A stretch of DNA of 64,000 nt from a virus, in IMG/VR virus record IMGVR_UViG_3300017447_000001, positions 1,227-65,226 of that record, one strand, 5' to 3'. The position numbers were made by a program, and so were the translations under genes. Shown here in pieces: positions 3,736 through 47,019 of the stretch (within the stretch, counting starts at the first letter, position 1; the number at the start of each line of letters is the position of its first letter). The notes beneath the pieces were generated by a model, which was given only the letters and a program-made list of their open reading frames with translations, was not told the origin of the DNA and searched no databases.

Positions 3736-4096
3736 TAACCTGACCCCTGAGCAAGCACGATACTTAGAATTGTTGGAAGGACAGGTAAATGGCGCTTCCA
3801 ATCTCATTAAAGAGTTGAATTTAATCAGTGAGGGGTACGCGCAGGATTTGATGAAAATAAGAACAGGCCAAGCTGGAGAAGAAGGAAAAAACCTGAACTA
3901 CATTAAGCCTGATAAGAACGACACCATATTCGCCCGTACTATGGTTTTGGTGGATAAGATTGATAAGATACTGGCGATTGAAAAAGCTACTAAGCAAGTT
4001 GAACCAGAGGTTAAAGAAGCGAAAGAAACTAAAAAACCAGCCGAACCAGTGAAACGTAAAAACTTTCAGGACATAGTACTGAACGGACATGAATAG
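3716..4096 (+). CDS. Possible terminase small subunit
   Basis: 126 aa helical protein directly upstream of and overlapping terL; positional inference only. Confidence 0.4.
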   Translation: MEKPNFDNLTPEQARYLELLEGQVNGASNLIKELNLISEGYAQDLMKIRTGQAGEEGKNLNYIKPDKNDTIFARTMVLVDKIDKILAIEKATKQVEPEVKEAKETKKPAEPVKRKNFQDIVLNGHE

Positions 4097-6101
4097 GAAC
4101 GAGTTTAACATAGCGAGAGAGAGGTTTGAGCAGGAACGCACGATAGGGGAGCTATTGGTTAAACTTCCTAAAGTGCCTGCGTTCACCAATATAGCCAACC
4201 ATGACCTACCAGTAAAACAACAACGTTTCAAGTACTCAGCGCCACACAACTCTCGTGAAGAACCCACGGAAGAATTTATGTTGCAAGAGTATCAGCGGAT
4301 GGTGAATGGCTATTGGTTCTTCAACAACGGAAATATAGAATACATTACTGGCGCACACTACTTTATTTTAAACTATTGGACAGATAGGGGTAAGAGGCTG
4401 TTGTTTGTTGATGCGCAAAGAGATGTATTCTTATGGTGGAAAGCGGTAGAGGATAACATTAACCTTTCAGGCGGAAATTTAATCACGAATCGAAGGTTCG
4501 GTAAAACCGTAATTTCTACAGGAATAGGATATTATCGCACAACCACGCGGTCAGATAGCAAGTGTGGCATCCAATCAAAAACAAATAAAGACGGCGATGG
4601 CGTGTTTAAAAAAACGGTTGCATCATGGATGAGATTGCCAGACTGGTTAAAGCCTCTTGATACAGGCGAGACACGTCCTGCGACAATACTGGAGTTCTTT
4701 CCCCCACGCAAGCGTTCTGCCAACCAGGGTAAAAAGATTTACGATCAAGCACTATACTCCTCGATAGATTATCGACCATCCGTGGAAGAGGCGTATGATG
4801 GTGAAGAGCTTACCACCTACATAGAGGACGAGGTGGGCAAAACCATAGGTGTTAATACAGACACACGATACAATATCGTCAAGTACTGTTTGATGAAAGG
4901 CCCAACCATTAATGGAAAAGCGCTCCGTACCACTACTGTGGAGGATATGGAGAAAAAAGGCGGTGCCAACATGAAGAAAACATGGGATGCCAGTAAGATG
5001 GCTACCATGAACCCTGAAACGGGCAGAACCGCATCCATGTTAACCAACCTGTTTGTTCCTGCTGATTACGGTTATTTAGGCAATCACCCTAAGACCGGCG
5101 AACCATTCGTAGACGAATATGGTTATTCAAACAGAGCATTAGCCAAAGAATACATTCTTTCTGTCTGGAACAACTTGGAGGGTGATGACCTCGCCGCAGA
5201 ACAACAAAAAAACCCACTTACAGAGAAACACATTTGGCAGCTCAAAAACTTTGGAGGCACGTTCGACAACGAACTACTAGAAATTCAAAAAGACTATCTC
5301 GAAAGAAACAACGACCACGAAGAAGATAACGCTCCTAAGAACCTTGTAAGACGTGTGACATTTTATAGAGATGCAGAAGGAAAAGTTAAATGGCGAGACG
5401 ATAAAAATGGGCATTGTCAGATGGTTTGGGACTTTGATGACTCCAAGTATTCAAACAAGAACAAAAGTGGCTCTAACGGACTAAAAAGCCCCGATAACGA
5501 CGAATCGTTTGCTATTGGTGTCGATCCGGCAGCAGCAACCATCACTACAGGCAAAGAAAAGTCAAAAGCAGTGGCTTACGTATTCCGTAAAGGTGACATG
5601 AATGACCCTGAAAACAGCGGATTGATGGTGCTACGATTTGCTCCATGGCCGAGGATGCGGTTCAAAAGAGACTTTCACAAGTACGTGATGATGCTTTGCG
5701 AGTACTACGGATGTAAAGCGAATTATGAGAGCAATATTGACGATTATTACGAGGCATTTATTGAGGAAGGGTTTAAGAACTATGTCATGTGGCGCCCTAA
5801 GTGTACGATTGACCCACAGCGCAAGAATGCTAAGTACAAGTACGGAACACCATCGAACGATGCTTTTGCGTTACAGAAACAAACAGACATTGCTGATGAG
5901 TATATCAAAACACGATACCATAAAATTTACTTTATAGAGGCAGTAGATTCATTTATCAAGTACGATCCTGACGATAGAACCAAGTCCGATGATGCCATAG
6001 CCTTTATGATGGCGTTAATTGGAGGTACGGACAGAAAAATGGATGTTAAACCCAACACCAGTAAGCTTAGTATTTTGAGGGTGTTTAAAAGAAGTGCATA
6101 A
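4089..6101 (+). CDS. terL: Terminase large subunit
   Basis: Walker A ITNRRFGKT, Walker B YIEDEVGK, nuclease motifs FAIGVDP and SDDAIAF; position before portal. Confidence 0.92.
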   Translation: MNRNEFNIARERFEQERTIGELLVKLPKVPAFTNIANHDLPVKQQRFKYSAPHNSREEPTEEFMLQEYQRMVNGYWFFNNGNIEYITGAHYFILNYWTDRGKRLLFVDAQRDVFLWWKAVEDNINLSGGNLITNRRFGKTVISTGIGYYRTTTRSDSKCGIQSKTNKDGDGVFKKTVASWMRLPDWLKPLDTGETRPATILEFFPPRKRSANQGKKIYDQALYSSIDYRPSVEEAYDGEELTTYIEDEVGKTIGVNTDTRYNIVKYCLMKGPTINGKALRTTTVEDMEKKGGANMKKTWDASKMATMNPETGRTASMLTNLFVPADYGYLGNHPKTGEPFVDEYGYSNRALAKEYILSVWNNLEGDDLAAEQQKNPLTEKHIWQLKNFGGTFDNELLEIQKDYLERNNDHEEDNAPKNLVRRVTFYRDAEGKVKWRDDKNGHCQMVWDFDDSKYSNKNKSGSNGLKSPDNDESFAIGVDPAAATITTGKEKSKAVAYVFRKGDMNDPENSGLMVLRFAPWPRMRFKRDFHKYVMMLCEYYGCKANYESNIDDYYEAFIEEGFKNYVMWRPKCTIDPQRKNAKYKYGTPSNDAFALQKQTDIADEYIKTRYHKIYFIEAVDSFIKYDPDDRTKSDDAIAFMMALIGGTDRKMDVKPNTSKLSILRVFKRSA

Positions 6102-42681: not shown

Positions 42682-43265
42682 AATACAATGACTGATGTTT
42701 CGTTATCGTTTTTCTCGTTAATGTACATTTCTGGCGGAGCAACAGTGGTCTCCATTCCCAATAGCAGGTCGTCAATATCTGACGTTAGTTGGTCTAACAT
42801 CTCGGGGTTGAACTTATTAGTCAACGAGGCTATGAATAGCGTGTTCTTAGTGGTACGGACATTAAGGTCATAGGGGTTTTTATAAGCCCGTGAAGACTCT
42901 GTAGCTTCTACCGTGCCCACCAACTCCCCATTTACCCAAAGCCCCGCCATATCGCCTAAAAACGCACCTGCGGTCAATGTAAACTTAGGGTTGTTTTTCA
43001 GGTCATAGGGAGATGGGGAGTAGTCTGGTGTTGTACGTAGGTCTGCATACTCAAAACGCCCTGCTACGAGATATAAGGCGTCGCCTTTGCCTTGTCCTCC
43101 CCATGCAGCATATCCGTATGACTGATTGCGCTCGTATACTAAAAATCCAATAATATCTTTTGGATAAGCTTGAAGCTTAAACTCGCCCTCTCCTGGTGCA
43201 ATTTGGTACGCCCCCAACATCTGGTGTTTCTGGGCGCGTTCGTTAAACTTGTCTTGTGCGTTCAT
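42678..43265 (-). CDS. Hypothetical protein, possible LamG/concanavalin-like fold
   Basis: LWVNGELVG motif; ATGA-coupled to the GH71-like gene. Confidence 0.4.
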   Translation of the reverse strand: MNAQDKFNERAQKHQMLGAYQIAPGEGEFKLQAYPKDIIGFLVYERNQSYGYAAWGGQGKGDALYLVAGRFEYADLRTTPDYSPSPYDLKNNPKFTLTAGAFLGDMAGLWVNGELVGTVEATESSRAYKNPYDLNVRTTKNTLFIASLTNKFNPEMLDQLTSDIDDLLLGMETTVAPPEMYINEKNDNETSVIVL

Positions 43266-43359
43266 AAGTTTTCTTGTAAAGGTATTGATTATTAATGACC
43301 TACCCCGTACTCTACAAAGCCACGGGCACGGAGTTGGGATAGGGTGATGTTGGAGGGCA

Positions 43360-43614
43360 TTAGATGGGCTGCAATTGTCTATCTTTAAGAACTTTTTGAC
43401 GAACCGCCTTCGATATTTTTTGCAATTCCACTTTTGTCTTGCTTGCCCAAACTGGATCTTTTAGGCCCCTTTGTATTAAAACATACGCGGTAAGCCCTTT
43501 GTTAATCCTGGTAACCTGAAGTAAGGCTAATCTAGAAGCCACGGCAAAATGTCCGCTTTTCTCTTTTCCAGTCATTAGCCTAACATAAGGCATGTATTTT
43601 TTATGCTCTTTCAT
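43360..43614 (-). CDS. Hypothetical protein
   Basis: 84 aa ORF. Confidence 0.5.
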   Translation of the reverse strand: MKEHKKYMPYVRLMTGKEKSGHFAVASRLALLQVTRINKGLTAYVLIQRGLKDPVWASKTKVELQKISKAVRQKVLKDRQLQPI

Positions 43615-43644
43615 AATTCATTTATTTTATCCCCTGTATGGGGG

Positions 43645-44286
43645 TTAAACTGTTGGGGGTGAATACGGCACTTCTTCGAGTAACCTGTAAGCAACCATGC
43701 CATTCATATCAAATGGTAAAAAGTGCTGTACAAATGGGTTCGAACAATAGAAAGCAGGATAATAAAAGTATGAGCTGTTGTGCGCCATCCTTTTTGTTAT
43801 GTACCATCCGTCAACCGTTGGAGCACCTTCACTCACCGGCACCCACCTATTAGCTTCTACTAATGCCTGGTTAGAGGTTTGGAGTTCAGCGTATGCCTCC
43901 AATAACGTTTGCTTAGATTGATTTAATTCGACTATTGATGCATGATACTTCTCAACCAAATCGCACAGATTACGCCGGATTGTATTCTGACCTTCAATTA
44001 GGTTTATATTGCGTTCATTCTCTGCCTTCAATCGCTCTACCTCCCCCTGTAGATGGGATAGGTGGGCCTGTTGGTGGACCGCTTGTTGAGCCGATGCTTC
44101 ATGCCCAATCAAATAACCATGCCTTTTACTGTATTGAATATATTGGTCAATATCTGACATGTTATCATTGACTGGGAAAAGCCGTTCGGCTGCCTCTGTA
44201 GCGGTTTCTTGCTCTCCGAACACTTCGGGACAGGCTACTAGGTTCGGCTGCTCCTGCGCCTCTGCCTGTTGTTTTGGGTTGCTCAA
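43645..44286 (-). CDS. Coiled-coil protein with C-terminal DUF551-like domain; TTG start lies in the TnpB element end
   Basis: RWVPVSEGAPTVDGWY pattern; begins TTG-AGC-AAC-CCA. Confidence 0.65.
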   Translation of the reverse strand: MSNPKQQAEAQEQPNLVACPEVFGEQETATEAAERLFPVNDNMSDIDQYIQYSKRHGYLIGHEASAQQAVHQQAHLSHLQGEVERLKAENERNINLIEGQNTIRRNLCDLVEKYHASIVELNQSKQTLLEAYAELQTSNQALVEANRWVPVSEGAPTVDGWYITKRMAHNSSYFYYPAFYCSNPFVQHFLPFDMNGMVAYRLLEEVPYSPPTV

Positions 44287-44415
44287 AACTTTAATGTTTA
44301 AAGATTAATAAATCTGTTAATTTTTAATTCTTGCTTCATCGACAGGCTGAGTTAGCGAACTAACTGAACTCCCATCTCCACAAGCTTGACTTCCCGTAGT
44401 CTTTACGGTAGGGCT
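44277..44415 (-). ncRNA. Predicted TnpB omega-RNA scaffold overlapping the tnpB 3' end
   Basis: Hairpins CCGTA-AAGAC-TACGG (44394-44408) and AGTTAG-TTCG-CTAACT (44350-44365), then GTCGATGAAGCAAGAA and element end GTTTTGAGCAACC. Confidence 0.65.
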
Positions 44416-45489
44416 GTAATTAGCCAAGTTTATTGCTGCGTTTAAGTCCCTGTCGATAGAAAACCCACAAGCATCGCAGTTGTACATTCTTTCGGATAGT
44501 TTTAAATCTTTCTTTTTGTTGCCACACATAGAGCATAGCTTTGAACTAGGAAAAAATCTATCAGCTATAATAACCTCTTTACCCTGCCATTCGGCCTTGT
44601 ACTTAATTTGTCTAAAACCTTCAGCTATACCTACATCACTTAGCGCCAGAGAAAGGCTCCTGTTCTTAATCATATTAGCTACGCTTAGCCCTTCTATGAC
44701 TATTTTATCGGCCTTGTTAACTATACTTGTTGTGGCGCAATGTAAGGCGTGACTTCTAACGCAGGATATGCGGTAATGTAGCTTTGATAGCTTTATCTTT
44801 GCTTTCTCTCTATTGTTGGAATCTTTTTTCTTTCGAGCCAGCGACTTGTTTGCTCTTCTTAGTTTCTTGAGGTTTACTCTTAAAGATCTAGGGTTATTGT
44901 AAACACTACCATCAGATGTTACAAACATTGATTTTATACCAGCATCCACACCTATAACAACTTGGTTCTCGTTATTTACAGACATGTCTGTTTCACTGGT
45001 TTCAACATTTATGATGGCAAACCATTTGTCGGATATGCGCTTAACTTTTACTGAATTTACCCTTCCAACAAACCTCAAGTTTTCAGCACACTTTACTTTG
45101 CCTACTTTAGGTATGTGTATGCGATAATCCTTTTGCCAGTAAGCTTCTTTGTTCTCGACTGCTACAAAGCTGTCTCTTACTCCTTTCTTTTTAAACTTTG
45201 GGTATTTTGTGCCTAGCTTCCACATGGATTTATATGCTTTTTCCAAATTGTGAATAGCATATTGAGGCGCAGTTTTGCTGACTTCCATGTAAAATGGCAT
45301 CTCACTTCTTTTGATTGAATTTTGAAGCTTAATAAGGCTGTAAGCGCTAGGTTTATCTCCCAACTTGTGCAACTCTTGCCATTTTGATAAAGCCCAGTTA
45401 TAACTATGCCGCGCCACGCCACAAGACTTTTTAAAAAGCACTTCTTGCTTGAACGTAGGATACAATCGTATAACATGGGTTTTTATCAT
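44317..45489 (-). CDS. tnpB: TnpB RNA-guided endonuclease, catalytic triad intact
   Basis: N-terminal IRLYPT...GVARHSYNWAL; RuvC-I GVDAG, RuvC-II VIEGL, Zn finger CSMC/CDAC, RuvC-III DRDLNAAINL. Confidence 0.95.
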   Translation of the reverse strand: MIKTHVIRLYPTFKQEVLFKKSCGVARHSYNWALSKWQELHKLGDKPSAYSLIKLQNSIKRSEMPFYMEVSKTAPQYAIHNLEKAYKSMWKLGTKYPKFKKKGVRDSFVAVENKEAYWQKDYRIHIPKVGKVKCAENLRFVGRVNSVKVKRISDKWFAIINVETSETDMSVNNENQVVIGVDAGIKSMFVTSDGSVYNNPRSLRVNLKKLRRANKSLARKKKDSNNREKAKIKLSKLHYRISCVRSHALHCATTSIVNKADKIVIEGLSVANMIKNRSLSLALSDVGIAEGFRQIKYKAEWQGKEVIIADRFFPSSKLCSMCGNKKKDLKLSERMYNCDACGFSIDRDLNAAINLANYSPTVKTTGSQACGDGSSVSSLTQPVDEARIKN

Positions 45490-45522
45490 TGCTTGGTTTC
45501 TAGTGTTTAAAAATTCGGTTGC

Positions 45523-45789
45523 TCATGGGGTGTGGGGTATGTAGATTTCGTTTAAAAATCGCTTTAGGTATTTGCTATCAACAGGATTTGCGCCTTGCAA
45601 AATACACTTATGATACAAGTGCTTTGCAATGTCGTAATGTGGTTGAAACTTGCCTTTTTTGTTAGAGTAATGGCAACGCTTAATACCTAACTTTTCGGCA
45701 AAGTGATGCAACTCTTCGATTGTGCTGCCTACCATATGGCTATACATACCTTTGCCAGGGTATGATTTTGGGTGGTCAATCAAAATCAT
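45523..45789 (-). CDS. DUF4031-like protein
   Basis: HMVGSTIEELHHFAEKLG...PHYDI pattern. Confidence 0.75.
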   Translation of the reverse strand: MILIDHPKSYPGKGMYSHMVGSTIEELHHFAEKLGIKRCHYSNKKGKFQPHYDIAKHLYHKCILQGANPVDSKYLKRFLNEIYIPHTP

Positions 45790-46301
45790 GCTTTCTCCTT
45801 TCTAAGTTTATCCAACTCTGCCTGTGTTTCGGCAAGTTGTTGGGTGAGGGTGGCGGCAGCAGCATTCCACCCTTTAATACAGGCCTCTCTTAAAACAGCG
45901 TTAGCATCAAAATCACCACTTAAATCGTCATCGCCAGGAATATTAATAATTGCAGCCGGGTATTCACTGAATGCAAACCGCTCGCTCTCCCCCTCCACGC
46001 TTTGCGGTTCAGGTTCAGGCACGGGTTCAAGGGCGACGAGGGGTATGGTCCCTTTCCCCGAACAGATTTGACAATTTACTTTATGCCCATACTTCCTACG
46101 GATATTACCCGAACCAAAACAGTTCCAACAGGCTATCACCCTATCCCCTACTTTAAATACGGGTGTATCTAGGGGCGCGCGTTGGTACATTTGTATTGGA
46201 CCACCATCACAGTAAGGGTAGGCGGTCTCTTTCCACAGCTTCCGCTGCTCTTCCGGTAGTTTACCCCAATCTTCGGGGGTGATAAGTTCTTGTGCGGTCA
46301 T
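45786..46301 (-). CDS. Protein with DnaJ-type CxxCxGxG zinc finger
   Basis: CWNCFGSG and CQICSGKG. Confidence 0.65.
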   Translation of the reverse strand: MTAQELITPEDWGKLPEEQRKLWKETAYPYCDGGPIQMYQRAPLDTPVFKVGDRVIACWNCFGSGNIRRKYGHKVNCQICSGKGTIPLVALEPVPEPEPQSVEGESERFAFSEYPAAIINIPGDDDLSGDFDANAVLREACIKGWNAAAATLTQQLAETQAELDKLRKEKA

Positions 46302-46531
46302 ATTAGCTTTATTTGCTTACCGTTAAAAATGTAAAACTCTTCTCCATAAAAGAAACTGGCGCTGTCGTTACATTTTATTTTCATACCCCAGCCTACCGGC
46401 GTACGTTCTATGTCTGTCACTTCGCCCTCATCGCGATAATGTGGGTGCTTTGGGTCAATGACTTTAACTTCTCTGCCAATCCATTTGGCTTTAAAAGCTT
46501 CTACTTCCGGGGTGATTAAATTATCGTTCAT
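46298..46531 (-). CDS. Small SH3/KOW-like hypothetical protein
   Basis: IGREVKVI...EGEVTDI pattern. Confidence 0.5.
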   Translation of the reverse strand: MNDNLITPEVEAFKAKWIGREVKVIDPKHPHYRDEGEVTDIERTPVGWGMKIKCNDSASFFYGEEFYIFNGKQIKLI

Positions 46532-47019
46532 GGGTGGGTGGGGTTAGGCGTAAAGCTGCATGACAGCCATTTTAATACAGGTTGCTTTATCTCGACTGTT
46601 ATCGCTTTGCATATGGCTTAAAGCGCAATAAAGTATATCGGCTTTCTTTTGAAAACTTGCATCAAAATAATACCCTAAGGCTGTTTCTTCGGTTGGTTTT
46701 GGCTGTTTACTATCTTTCATATCCTTTCAATTTATTGGTGAGGTTCGGGGGTGTTGGTTGGGGATGGGATGAAAAGGTTCATTCTTCTTCTACTTTGCTG
46801 ATTAAATAAATAATGGTTCCTACTACTATAGCAATCAATACGATGATGGGAACCTTGCTGATGGTTAATGCTATAGTCATGGTGTTTGATTTAAGTTGTG
46901 ATACAGTAGATATAGGCTCACTATGGCGTAAGCTAACAGTTTATATGTCCCGTAGATGATAAGAGCGCACAGGGACGCTAAAGCCGCTATAATGGCACTG
47001 TAAGTAAGTGGTACGTGTT

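Follow-up and report, generated by a model that had tools for sequence, protein, structure and literature searches.

Here, we describe a TnpB element that sits between two genes in a 64,000-nucleotide stretch of viral DNA (IMG/VR record IMGVR_UViG_3300017447_000001, positions 1,227 to 65,226; hereafter the window) and whose right end appears to supply the next gene's start codon. The window belongs to a viral contig of 73,224 bp that has direct terminal repeats, is rated complete and holds a single tnpB copy. The region is encoded entirely on the minus strand, in the order DUF4031 gene, tnpB and 213-codon frame, and has the following features (window positions):

45523..45789, minus strand: upstream gene of the DUF4031 family, 88 amino acids (Pfam PF13223, E 3.6e-17), with its TGA stop at 45525-45523.
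45524..45526, minus strand: putative relic of the displaced gene's native ATG, in an ATGA overlap with the DUF4031 stop; the relative L027 has a like arrangement (TAATG plus 5 nt).
45517..45525, minus strand: left copy of the 9-nt direct repeat TGAGCAACC, read as the last two bases (TG) of the native ATG and the 7 nt that open native codons 2-4.
45500..45526, minus strand: mini-frame of nine codons, MSNRIFKH-stop, opened by the relic ATG, with its TAG 10 nt before the tnpB ATG.
45490..45516, minus strand: 27-nt spacer of uncertain origin between the left repeat and the tnpB ATG (45489), not conserved in relatives.
44317..45489, minus strand: tnpB, 390 amino acids, with RuvC triad and zinc-ribbon cysteines intact.
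44284..44430, minus strand: guide-RNA (omega RNA) scaffold, which overlaps the tnpB 3' end and reaches the right end of the element; its 5' limit is approximate.
44284..44286, minus strand: invariant TTG, last triplet of the element and first start codon of the downstream frame, as read from the alignment of relatives, BLAST ends and the frame table.
44277..44285, minus strand: right copy of TGAGCAACC, read as the last two bases (TG) of the element's TTG followed by native codons 2-4.
44264..44283, minus strand: predicted guide segment of 16-20 nt, starting AGCAACCCAAAAC, which would equal the target in a cassette-free allele.
43645..44286, minus strand: displaced downstream gene, 213 amino acids, an orphan whose middle is a coiled coil and whose C-terminal part may be DUF551-like.

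This layout agrees in most points with a preliminary description, made from the letters of the window, that had proposed a solo TnpB element inserted at a start codon. The 9-nt repeat that it placed around a 1240-bp insert is there, with its two copies (45525-45517 and 44285-44277) 1240 nt apart and no other copy in the whole window. The DUF4031 stop does overlap the presumed original ATG (TGA at 45525-45523, ATG at 45526-45524), which now reads MSNRIFKH-stop, and 27 nt (45516-45490) separate the left junction from the tnpB ATG.

A search of 5.8 billion proteins returned many TnpBs with 55-71% identity to that of the window, mostly on contigs of 40-105 kb. Public assemblies contain hundreds of family members at 55% identity or above, with at least 120 among the matches listed. 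Close family members were not found in IMG/VR or in GTDB genomes, where identity reached 45% at most, and only two turned up in Joint Genome Institute (JGI) metagenomes. The neighbours of the related elements are of phage type, such as Lar-like and T4 Y07B-like genes, methylases, primase-polymerase and GIY-YIG nuclease. We compared twelve independent insertions, i.e., that of the window and those in L019, L020, L021, L024, L026, L027, L028, L111, L112, L193, and L194. In both alignment and BLAST, nucleotide similarity among the relatives ends exactly after an invariant TTG. The window and L019 (71% protein identity) have in common a run ending AAAGTTTTG and then continue with AGCAACC and CCACTAA, respectively; L020 and L111 likewise share ACTTG and diverge beyond it. 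Because similarity stops there, TTG is the final triplet of the element and AGCAACC part of the native gene. The preliminary description was right in setting the TTG in frame with the gene that ends at 43645, but its assignment of AGCAACC to the element did not hold, as the family comparison places the boundary after TTG and not after TTGAGCAACC.

When the three frames were counted from the TTG, its own was the long open frame (59 to >832 codons) in 10 of 11 informative insertions (binomial P ~1.3e-4 against a random phase of 1/3); L112 was left out as uninformative, its contig ending after 14 codons. TTG is the first start after the upstream in-frame stop in nine of these ten, with an ATG two codons earlier in L020, and the next in-frame ATG follows 25-122 codons downstream in nine of ten (in L111 at codon 3). 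Gene calls on public contigs begin at the TTG in L019, L022, L023, L024, L026, and L195. The tnpB stop precedes the TTG by 2-3 nt in several relatives (TAA-AC-TTG and similar), a spacing that would favour termination-reinitiation in those relatives, and by 30 nt in the window and 96 nt in L019. With an invariant TTG in frame with the next gene, the earlier proposal that the element supplies a replacement start thus gains clade-wide support. Going by the right ends compared, the TTG end is specific to this TnpB clade; the wider idea that the right ends of phage TnpB elements generally close with a start codon was rejected, since other clades on viral contigs end, for example, in AACGG. The literature searched did not yield any account of a TnpB element that provides a start codon through its right end.

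Some features of the element's end bear on expression. Across the window (minus-strand genes at 40822-64000), a Shine-Dalgarno-like motif was present in only 9 of 86 long open reading frames (ORFs), and leaders are A/T-rich, a pattern consistent with translation initiation as in Bacteroidota-type hosts. The element's own A/T-rich end resembles such leaders, but TTG is a rare start in this genome. No intrinsic terminator was detected on the minus strand between tnpB and the next gene, and sigma-70 promoter-like matches were below the shuffle mean. The right end, TAnn[T/C]TTG, resembles the Bacteroidota -7 box TAnnTTTG, with a perfect match in L026:3000-3007, L028:3725-3732, and L194:3226-3233 and one mismatch in the window (44284-44293); a transcription start few bases downstream of that box-like sequence would leave out the TTG. 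The minus strand of window 44271-44289 (GTTTTG-AGCAACC-CAAAAC) can also form a 6-bp hairpin with the repeat as its loop, which would pair the last bases of the element, including the TTG, with downstream codons 4-5.

Judged from its sequence, the nuclease gene of the window is intact. The TnpB has the Pfam domains HTH_OrfB_IS605 (PF12323), OrfB_IS605 (PF01385), and Cas12f-like TNB (PF07282), and matches the NCBIfam guided_TnpB model with 266 bits at a cut-off of 100. RuvC residues D182, E266, and D348 and zinc-ribbon cysteines C319, C322, C338, and C341, invariant in an alignment of 41 sequences, are all present. The closest solved structure is ISDra2 TnpB of the IS200/IS605 group (E 7e-54, residues 3-357), ahead of the IS607-type ISFba1 TnpB (E 9e-41); RAGATH-18 was not found either. 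The IS607 family, with which the preliminary description had proposed to compare the ends, is the weaker match. The C-terminal tail of the window TnpB (44317-44360) is frameshifted relative to the family consensus and has its stop 30 nt ahead of the TTG, and tnpB of L019 has a premature TAG 96 nt ahead of the TTG (L019:5099-5200); both changes fall past the last catalytic residue. L019 in addition encodes a 42-amino-acid ribbon-helix-helix ORF (NikA/MobA-like; L019:3873-4001), the stop of which overlaps the tnpB ATG (TAATG) and which is missing from the window element. This ORF could correspond to the 'Arc' repressor recently reported from IS605 elements (bioRxiv 10.64898/2026.09.24.754181).

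By its conserved fold, a guide-RNA scaffold is present that overlaps the tnpB 3' end as in IS605-type elements. Aligning the last ~190 nt of the element from ten independent relatives and folding them with RNAalifold gave a consensus of 21 pairs, 14 of which show compensatory changes, and the window copy folds into the consensus helices. Rfam gave no match, including RAGATH-18, at E up to 1 within window positions 43000-47000. The guide of a TnpB is the DNA that flanks the right end of its element (PMC8612924), and the sequences after the TTG are unrelated among the relatives, as expected of guides. Within the window, no second match to the predicted guide with at most three mismatches beside an ATG was found, and the left relic matches the guide over 7 nt only. 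TnpB nucleases cut 15-22 nt into the target (ISFba1), and related enzymes require ~12-13 matched bases (PMC11061315).

The left side of the element varies. In most relatives (L021, L024, L026), the upstream gene ends 0-2 nt ahead of the tnpB ATG, too close for a left end to fit in. The left flank of the window element consists of ATG-AGCAACC with 27 nt behind it, and that of L027 of TAATG-AGGCC, which adjoins the tnpB ATG; in both, the bases after the left TG repeat those that follow the element's TTG. The native ATG overlaps the upstream stop in both relic alleles (ATGA in the window, TAATG in L027), and an ATG overlapping the upstream stop is an ordinary junction of coupled phage genes. Because these relics keep ATG, the native start at the position of the TTG would have been ATG, and the first T of the TTG would derive from the element. 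What calls for an explanation is therefore not the right end, where AGCAACC is native, but the left copy and the 27 nt behind it. In a shuffle test over the whole window, which is weak evidence, some 9-mer occurred twice in 13 of 100 shuffles. We judged as relevant a test on repeats that are anchored at the right junction of the element and recur within 150 nt upstream of tnpB, which gave P ~0.01 for the window by shuffling (~6e-4 by simple count) and P 0.003 for L027 by shuffling. A flanking repeat is found in 2 of the 12 family insertions, and its length differs between them (9 nt in the window, 7-8 nt in L027).

The 27-nt spacer has no similarity to the upstream region of L019. Its pattern TTTTTAAAC followed by GAAACC is shared with the 3' end of the DUF4031 gene in L002 (local alignment, P 0.0035), and part of it also occurs in the window's own DUF4031 tail (P 0.01). 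These likenesses suggest that the spacer may be donor flank that was copied in with the cassette; a donor phage with the cassette at the same junction would explain the resemblance to a DUF4031 tail. The spacer is also weakly similar to the element's subterminal right end, as a 15-nt imperfect direct repeat (P 0.05). Antisense to the terminase-like gene at 4089-6101, positions ~4600-4620 of the window match GCAACCGAATTTTTAAACAC, the stretch that spans the left repeat and the start of the spacer, in 18 of 20 bases, which may be chance in A/T-rich sequence or a recombination trace. The tnpB of L020 carries nine additional N-terminal codons (MTENNPPPP; L020:4001-4030) ahead of the usual MI-AH start, which may be one more remnant of a native start that became joined to tnpB in frame. 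In more distant TnpBs of IMG/VR contigs (35-40% identity), direct repeats of 10-12 nt surround the tnpB region and take in the start-codon region of the next gene (L051, L072, L086), the one in L086 being a longer imperfect duplication of ~35 nt. As a signal, such unanchored repeats in distant clades (L051, L072, L086, L091) were discarded, being near or slightly above chance with undefined boundaries, and in L091 lying inside the element.

It is, in our assessment, rather probable that the window holds a transposase-less cassette of TnpB and guide RNA which acts in RNA-guided homing and whose phage-specific clade is built for an in-line place within phage operons. The clade-wide pattern strengthens the core of this reading, that is, a solo cassette at a start codon with its own sequence as apparent replacement start, and the placement at gene starts suggests a selfish cassette built for spread between phages without breaking genes. 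TnpB elements preserve themselves by cutting vacated sites. Here, the cassette would enter immediately 3' of a native ATG, the TTG would take over initiation of the displaced gene, and in most relatives the native ATG would then serve tnpB. With the initial 16-20 nt that the displaced gene has behind the TTG as guide, the nuclease would cleave those alleles of co-infecting relatives that lack the cassette (ATG plus the same codons), and the cassette would be copied into them by recombinational repair, which amounts to homing. Going by the two relic-bearing alleles, ATG may be the target-adjacent motif or part of it. TTG would be a start codon but not a motif, which would protect the occupied allele; ATG as motif would thereby resolve self-targeting and explain why the element ends in a start other than ATG. 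The window allele would derive from imprecise repair in which the broken left end kept ATG and 7 nt of target. Joining of such a trimmed end (ATG plus 5-7 nt), without homology, to donor DNA starting 27 nt upstream of the donor tnpB would create the 9-nt repeat and the mini-frame. We thus favour the repeats of 7-9 nt as probable scars of imprecise break repair over a transposase duplication.

In bacteria, homing driven by TnpB is an established process of IS605 and IS607 elements (PMC8612924, PMC10690162). A further study reports transposase-independent spread between co-resident plasmid replicons or copies (PMC11870625), and a 2026 review treats TnpB spread between co-infecting phages as theoretical (PMC13565253). 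Tentatively, and with some reserve, we propose the complete scheme for this clade, namely a phage-specific TnpB lineage specialised on start codons, in which the native ATG would be the motif and be handed to tnpB, the TTG end would keep the displaced gene translatable and the occupied allele immune, and the whole would operate as a left-end-less, transposase-independent, RNA-guided gene drive between co-infecting phages, with the repeats of 7-9 nt in the window and L027 as break-repair scars.

Several points weigh against the reading as a homing cassette. We know of no precedent for a 3-nt motif that is one base off the element's own end. No cassette-free allele was found, so that the insertion point is deduced from the two relic-bearing alleles only; in the ten relic-less insertions, a tnpB on the native ATG is indistinguishable from a tnpB with an ATG of its own. 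The donor-flank reading of the 27 nt relies on a short match (P 0.004-0.01), which is thin evidence. In L193, the exception among the informative insertions, the TTG opens only 33 codons. A ribosome-binding motif is lacking ahead of the TTG in the window, although such motifs are rare in this phage anyway, and tight coupling is not evident there, where tnpB ends 30 nt short of that TTG. The transcript of tnpB is turned into guide RNA by TnpB itself (PMC10278001), and this maturation would strip the TTG from the same transcript, so that the insertion is probably not cost-free.

The empty allele that the preliminary description had predicted in related phages was found neither for the window nor for any relative, which does not refute the homing claim; the phage and its neighbours are barely sampled. 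Exact searches of IMG/VR returned neither the predicted empty allele nor a donor-type junction. The only public run that holds the phage is probably its source, which is a phyllosphere metagenome; the contigs of the run show a single form, and no junction among them bypasses the cassette. Look-ups of the exact downstream-gene proteins of L026 and L019 led to occupied contigs only. For L024 and L194, the phages of IMG/VR and GenBank contained either no homologues of the downstream genes or ones too remote to fix N-termini. L002, the sole relative of the DUF4031 gene (83% identity), was considered as an empty allele and rejected, as it has another next gene and a 59-nt spacer. That spacer, which contains an inverted repeat, lies behind the DUF4031 gene on a JGI contig of 3.4 kb (L002:2956-3458). 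The differing next gene of L002 indicates that gene content at this junction varies among related phages.

Transposition offers a different account of the same locus. Searches of the complete 73-kb genome for Y1 transposase (PF01797), with positive controls found, and for serine transposase (PF00239) were negative, and no transposase was found in the neighbourhoods of the relatives. Subterminal hairpins at both ends, which mark IS200/IS605 elements, are not seen here, with 0-2 nt left of tnpB in most relatives and 27 unconserved nt in the window. The earlier view of a solo TnpB without transposase and with almost no left end is thus supported, the left end being essentially unconserved. An IS605 Y1 or IS607 serine transposase supplied in trans could nevertheless have moved the element, with the TG of ATG as target motif or crossover core, TTG as right cleavage site, and the 27 nt as a short but real left end; transposase site choice plus selection, instead of homing, would then account for the location at gene starts. 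Such an origin would accord with IS607 elements, whose two junctions carry a common core dinucleotide and whose target motif is short (PMC10690162), and with IS607-type TnpBs that use AGGAG, a ribosome-binding sequence, as motif and are thus also found at gene starts (PMC11061315). The weak likeness of the spacer to the subterminal right end could be added, as left and right ends of IS605 elements resemble each other, but it is marginal (P 0.05). We consider transposition in trans unlikely, as no transposase is encoded in the complete phage genome or beside any relative, and the 0-2 nt left of tnpB in most relatives offer no space for a transposase-binding end. Moreover, Y1 and serine transposases make no target duplication (PMC6188088, PMC10690162), and neither mechanism would duplicate 5-7 nt of target.

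Equally improbable in our view is that the element is a fixed, immobile relic or domesticated gene, acquired long ago, in which TnpB serves the phage in competitor cutting or exclusion or as a regulator, and the TTG is kept by selection. Domestication of TnpB has happened repeatedly, and phages have cases as well (TldR, PMC10705468). The presence of one copy per genome, the lack of polymorphism among contigs of the public run that holds the phage, the frameshifted C-terminal tail in the window, and the premature stop in L019 would all suit such a fate. However, catalytic residues and guide-RNA scaffold are intact, whereas domesticated TnpB regulators have, to our knowledge, lost the nuclease triad. 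The same type of cassette is furthermore present at 12 different gene junctions in different phages, which argues for recent mobility, and competitor exclusion and homing are compatible with each other. A DDE-type cut-and-paste insertion, for which TGAGCAACC would be a classical 9-bp target-site duplication and the right TTG partly target, is very improbable: direct repeats around an insert are its textbook signature, but terminal inverted repeats were not found, the flanking repeat is missing in 10 of 12 insertions and differs in length between the other two (9 vs. 7-8 nt), and TTG is element sequence in all relatives, which leaves a duplication of 7 instead of 9 nt.

The favoured homing cassette shares properties with several known systems. 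It resembles ISDra2 TnpB (PDB 8EXA, 8H1J; PMC8612924), its closest solved relative, in domain order and RuvC triad, and in a scaffold that overlaps the gene's 3' end and reaches as far as the element's right end; its guide, too, would be taken from flanking DNA. Unlike ISDra2, the window element has no TnpA partner and no hairpin left end, and its right end is the invariant TTG start of the next gene. The motif of ISDra2 is TTGAT, whereas that of the window clade is deduced only, and the clade has so far been seen only on phage-like contigs. IS607-type TnpBs (ISFba1, PDB 8IAZ; PMC11061315) are similarly compact (~390 amino acids) and frequent as solo copies in phages, and their AGGAG motif is a ribosome-binding sequence, so that they too land at gene starts. 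They are the weaker match (E 9e-41), however, and RAGATH-18 was not found in the window; their guide RNA lies downstream of the ORF, whereas the window scaffold overlaps it, and they leave the start codon unreplaced.

The free-standing seg and mob homing endonuclease genes of T-even phages (PMC13565253) are likewise intronless nuclease genes wedged between conserved phage genes, and share the expected cutting of the nuclease-free allele in a co-infecting relative, copying by repair, and co-conversion of flanks. In contrast to these, recognition by the window nuclease would be RNA-guided and set automatically by the flank, the cassette would donate a start codon, and whether the cassette is there, and possibly a single start-codon base, would tell self from non-self. 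IStrons, which combine IS605 or IS607 elements with a group I intron (PMC10690162), are also TnpB elements with a built-in device that lowers the cost of insertion. They restore the message by splicing, whereas the window gene would be restored at the DNA level through exact placement and a substitute start; Rfam detected no intron in the window element.

These findings address the question of how transposase-less TnpB copies of phages persist and move, for which the clade provides a concrete, testable design. If ATG is the motif and TTG escapes it, a single base would account for both targeting and self-immunity. The proposed mechanism, if true, would show a selfish nuclease that enters tightly packed, translationally coupled phage operons at little cost, and would add a compact nuclease of 390 amino acids with a very short, common motif. 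For annotation, it implies that downstream genes at such loci start at a TTG owned by a mobile element.

The displaced gene of the window itself has few detectable relatives. For its 213-amino-acid product, none were found in IMG/VR, only the protein itself among 5.8 billion clustered proteins, and a marginal match among 1.8 billion representatives. As leads, Atlas feature and structure searches point to a DUF551-like C-terminal part behind the coiled coil (score 0.87, TM 0.43-0.55), and the suggested architecture recalls Ead/Ea22-like accessory phage proteins.

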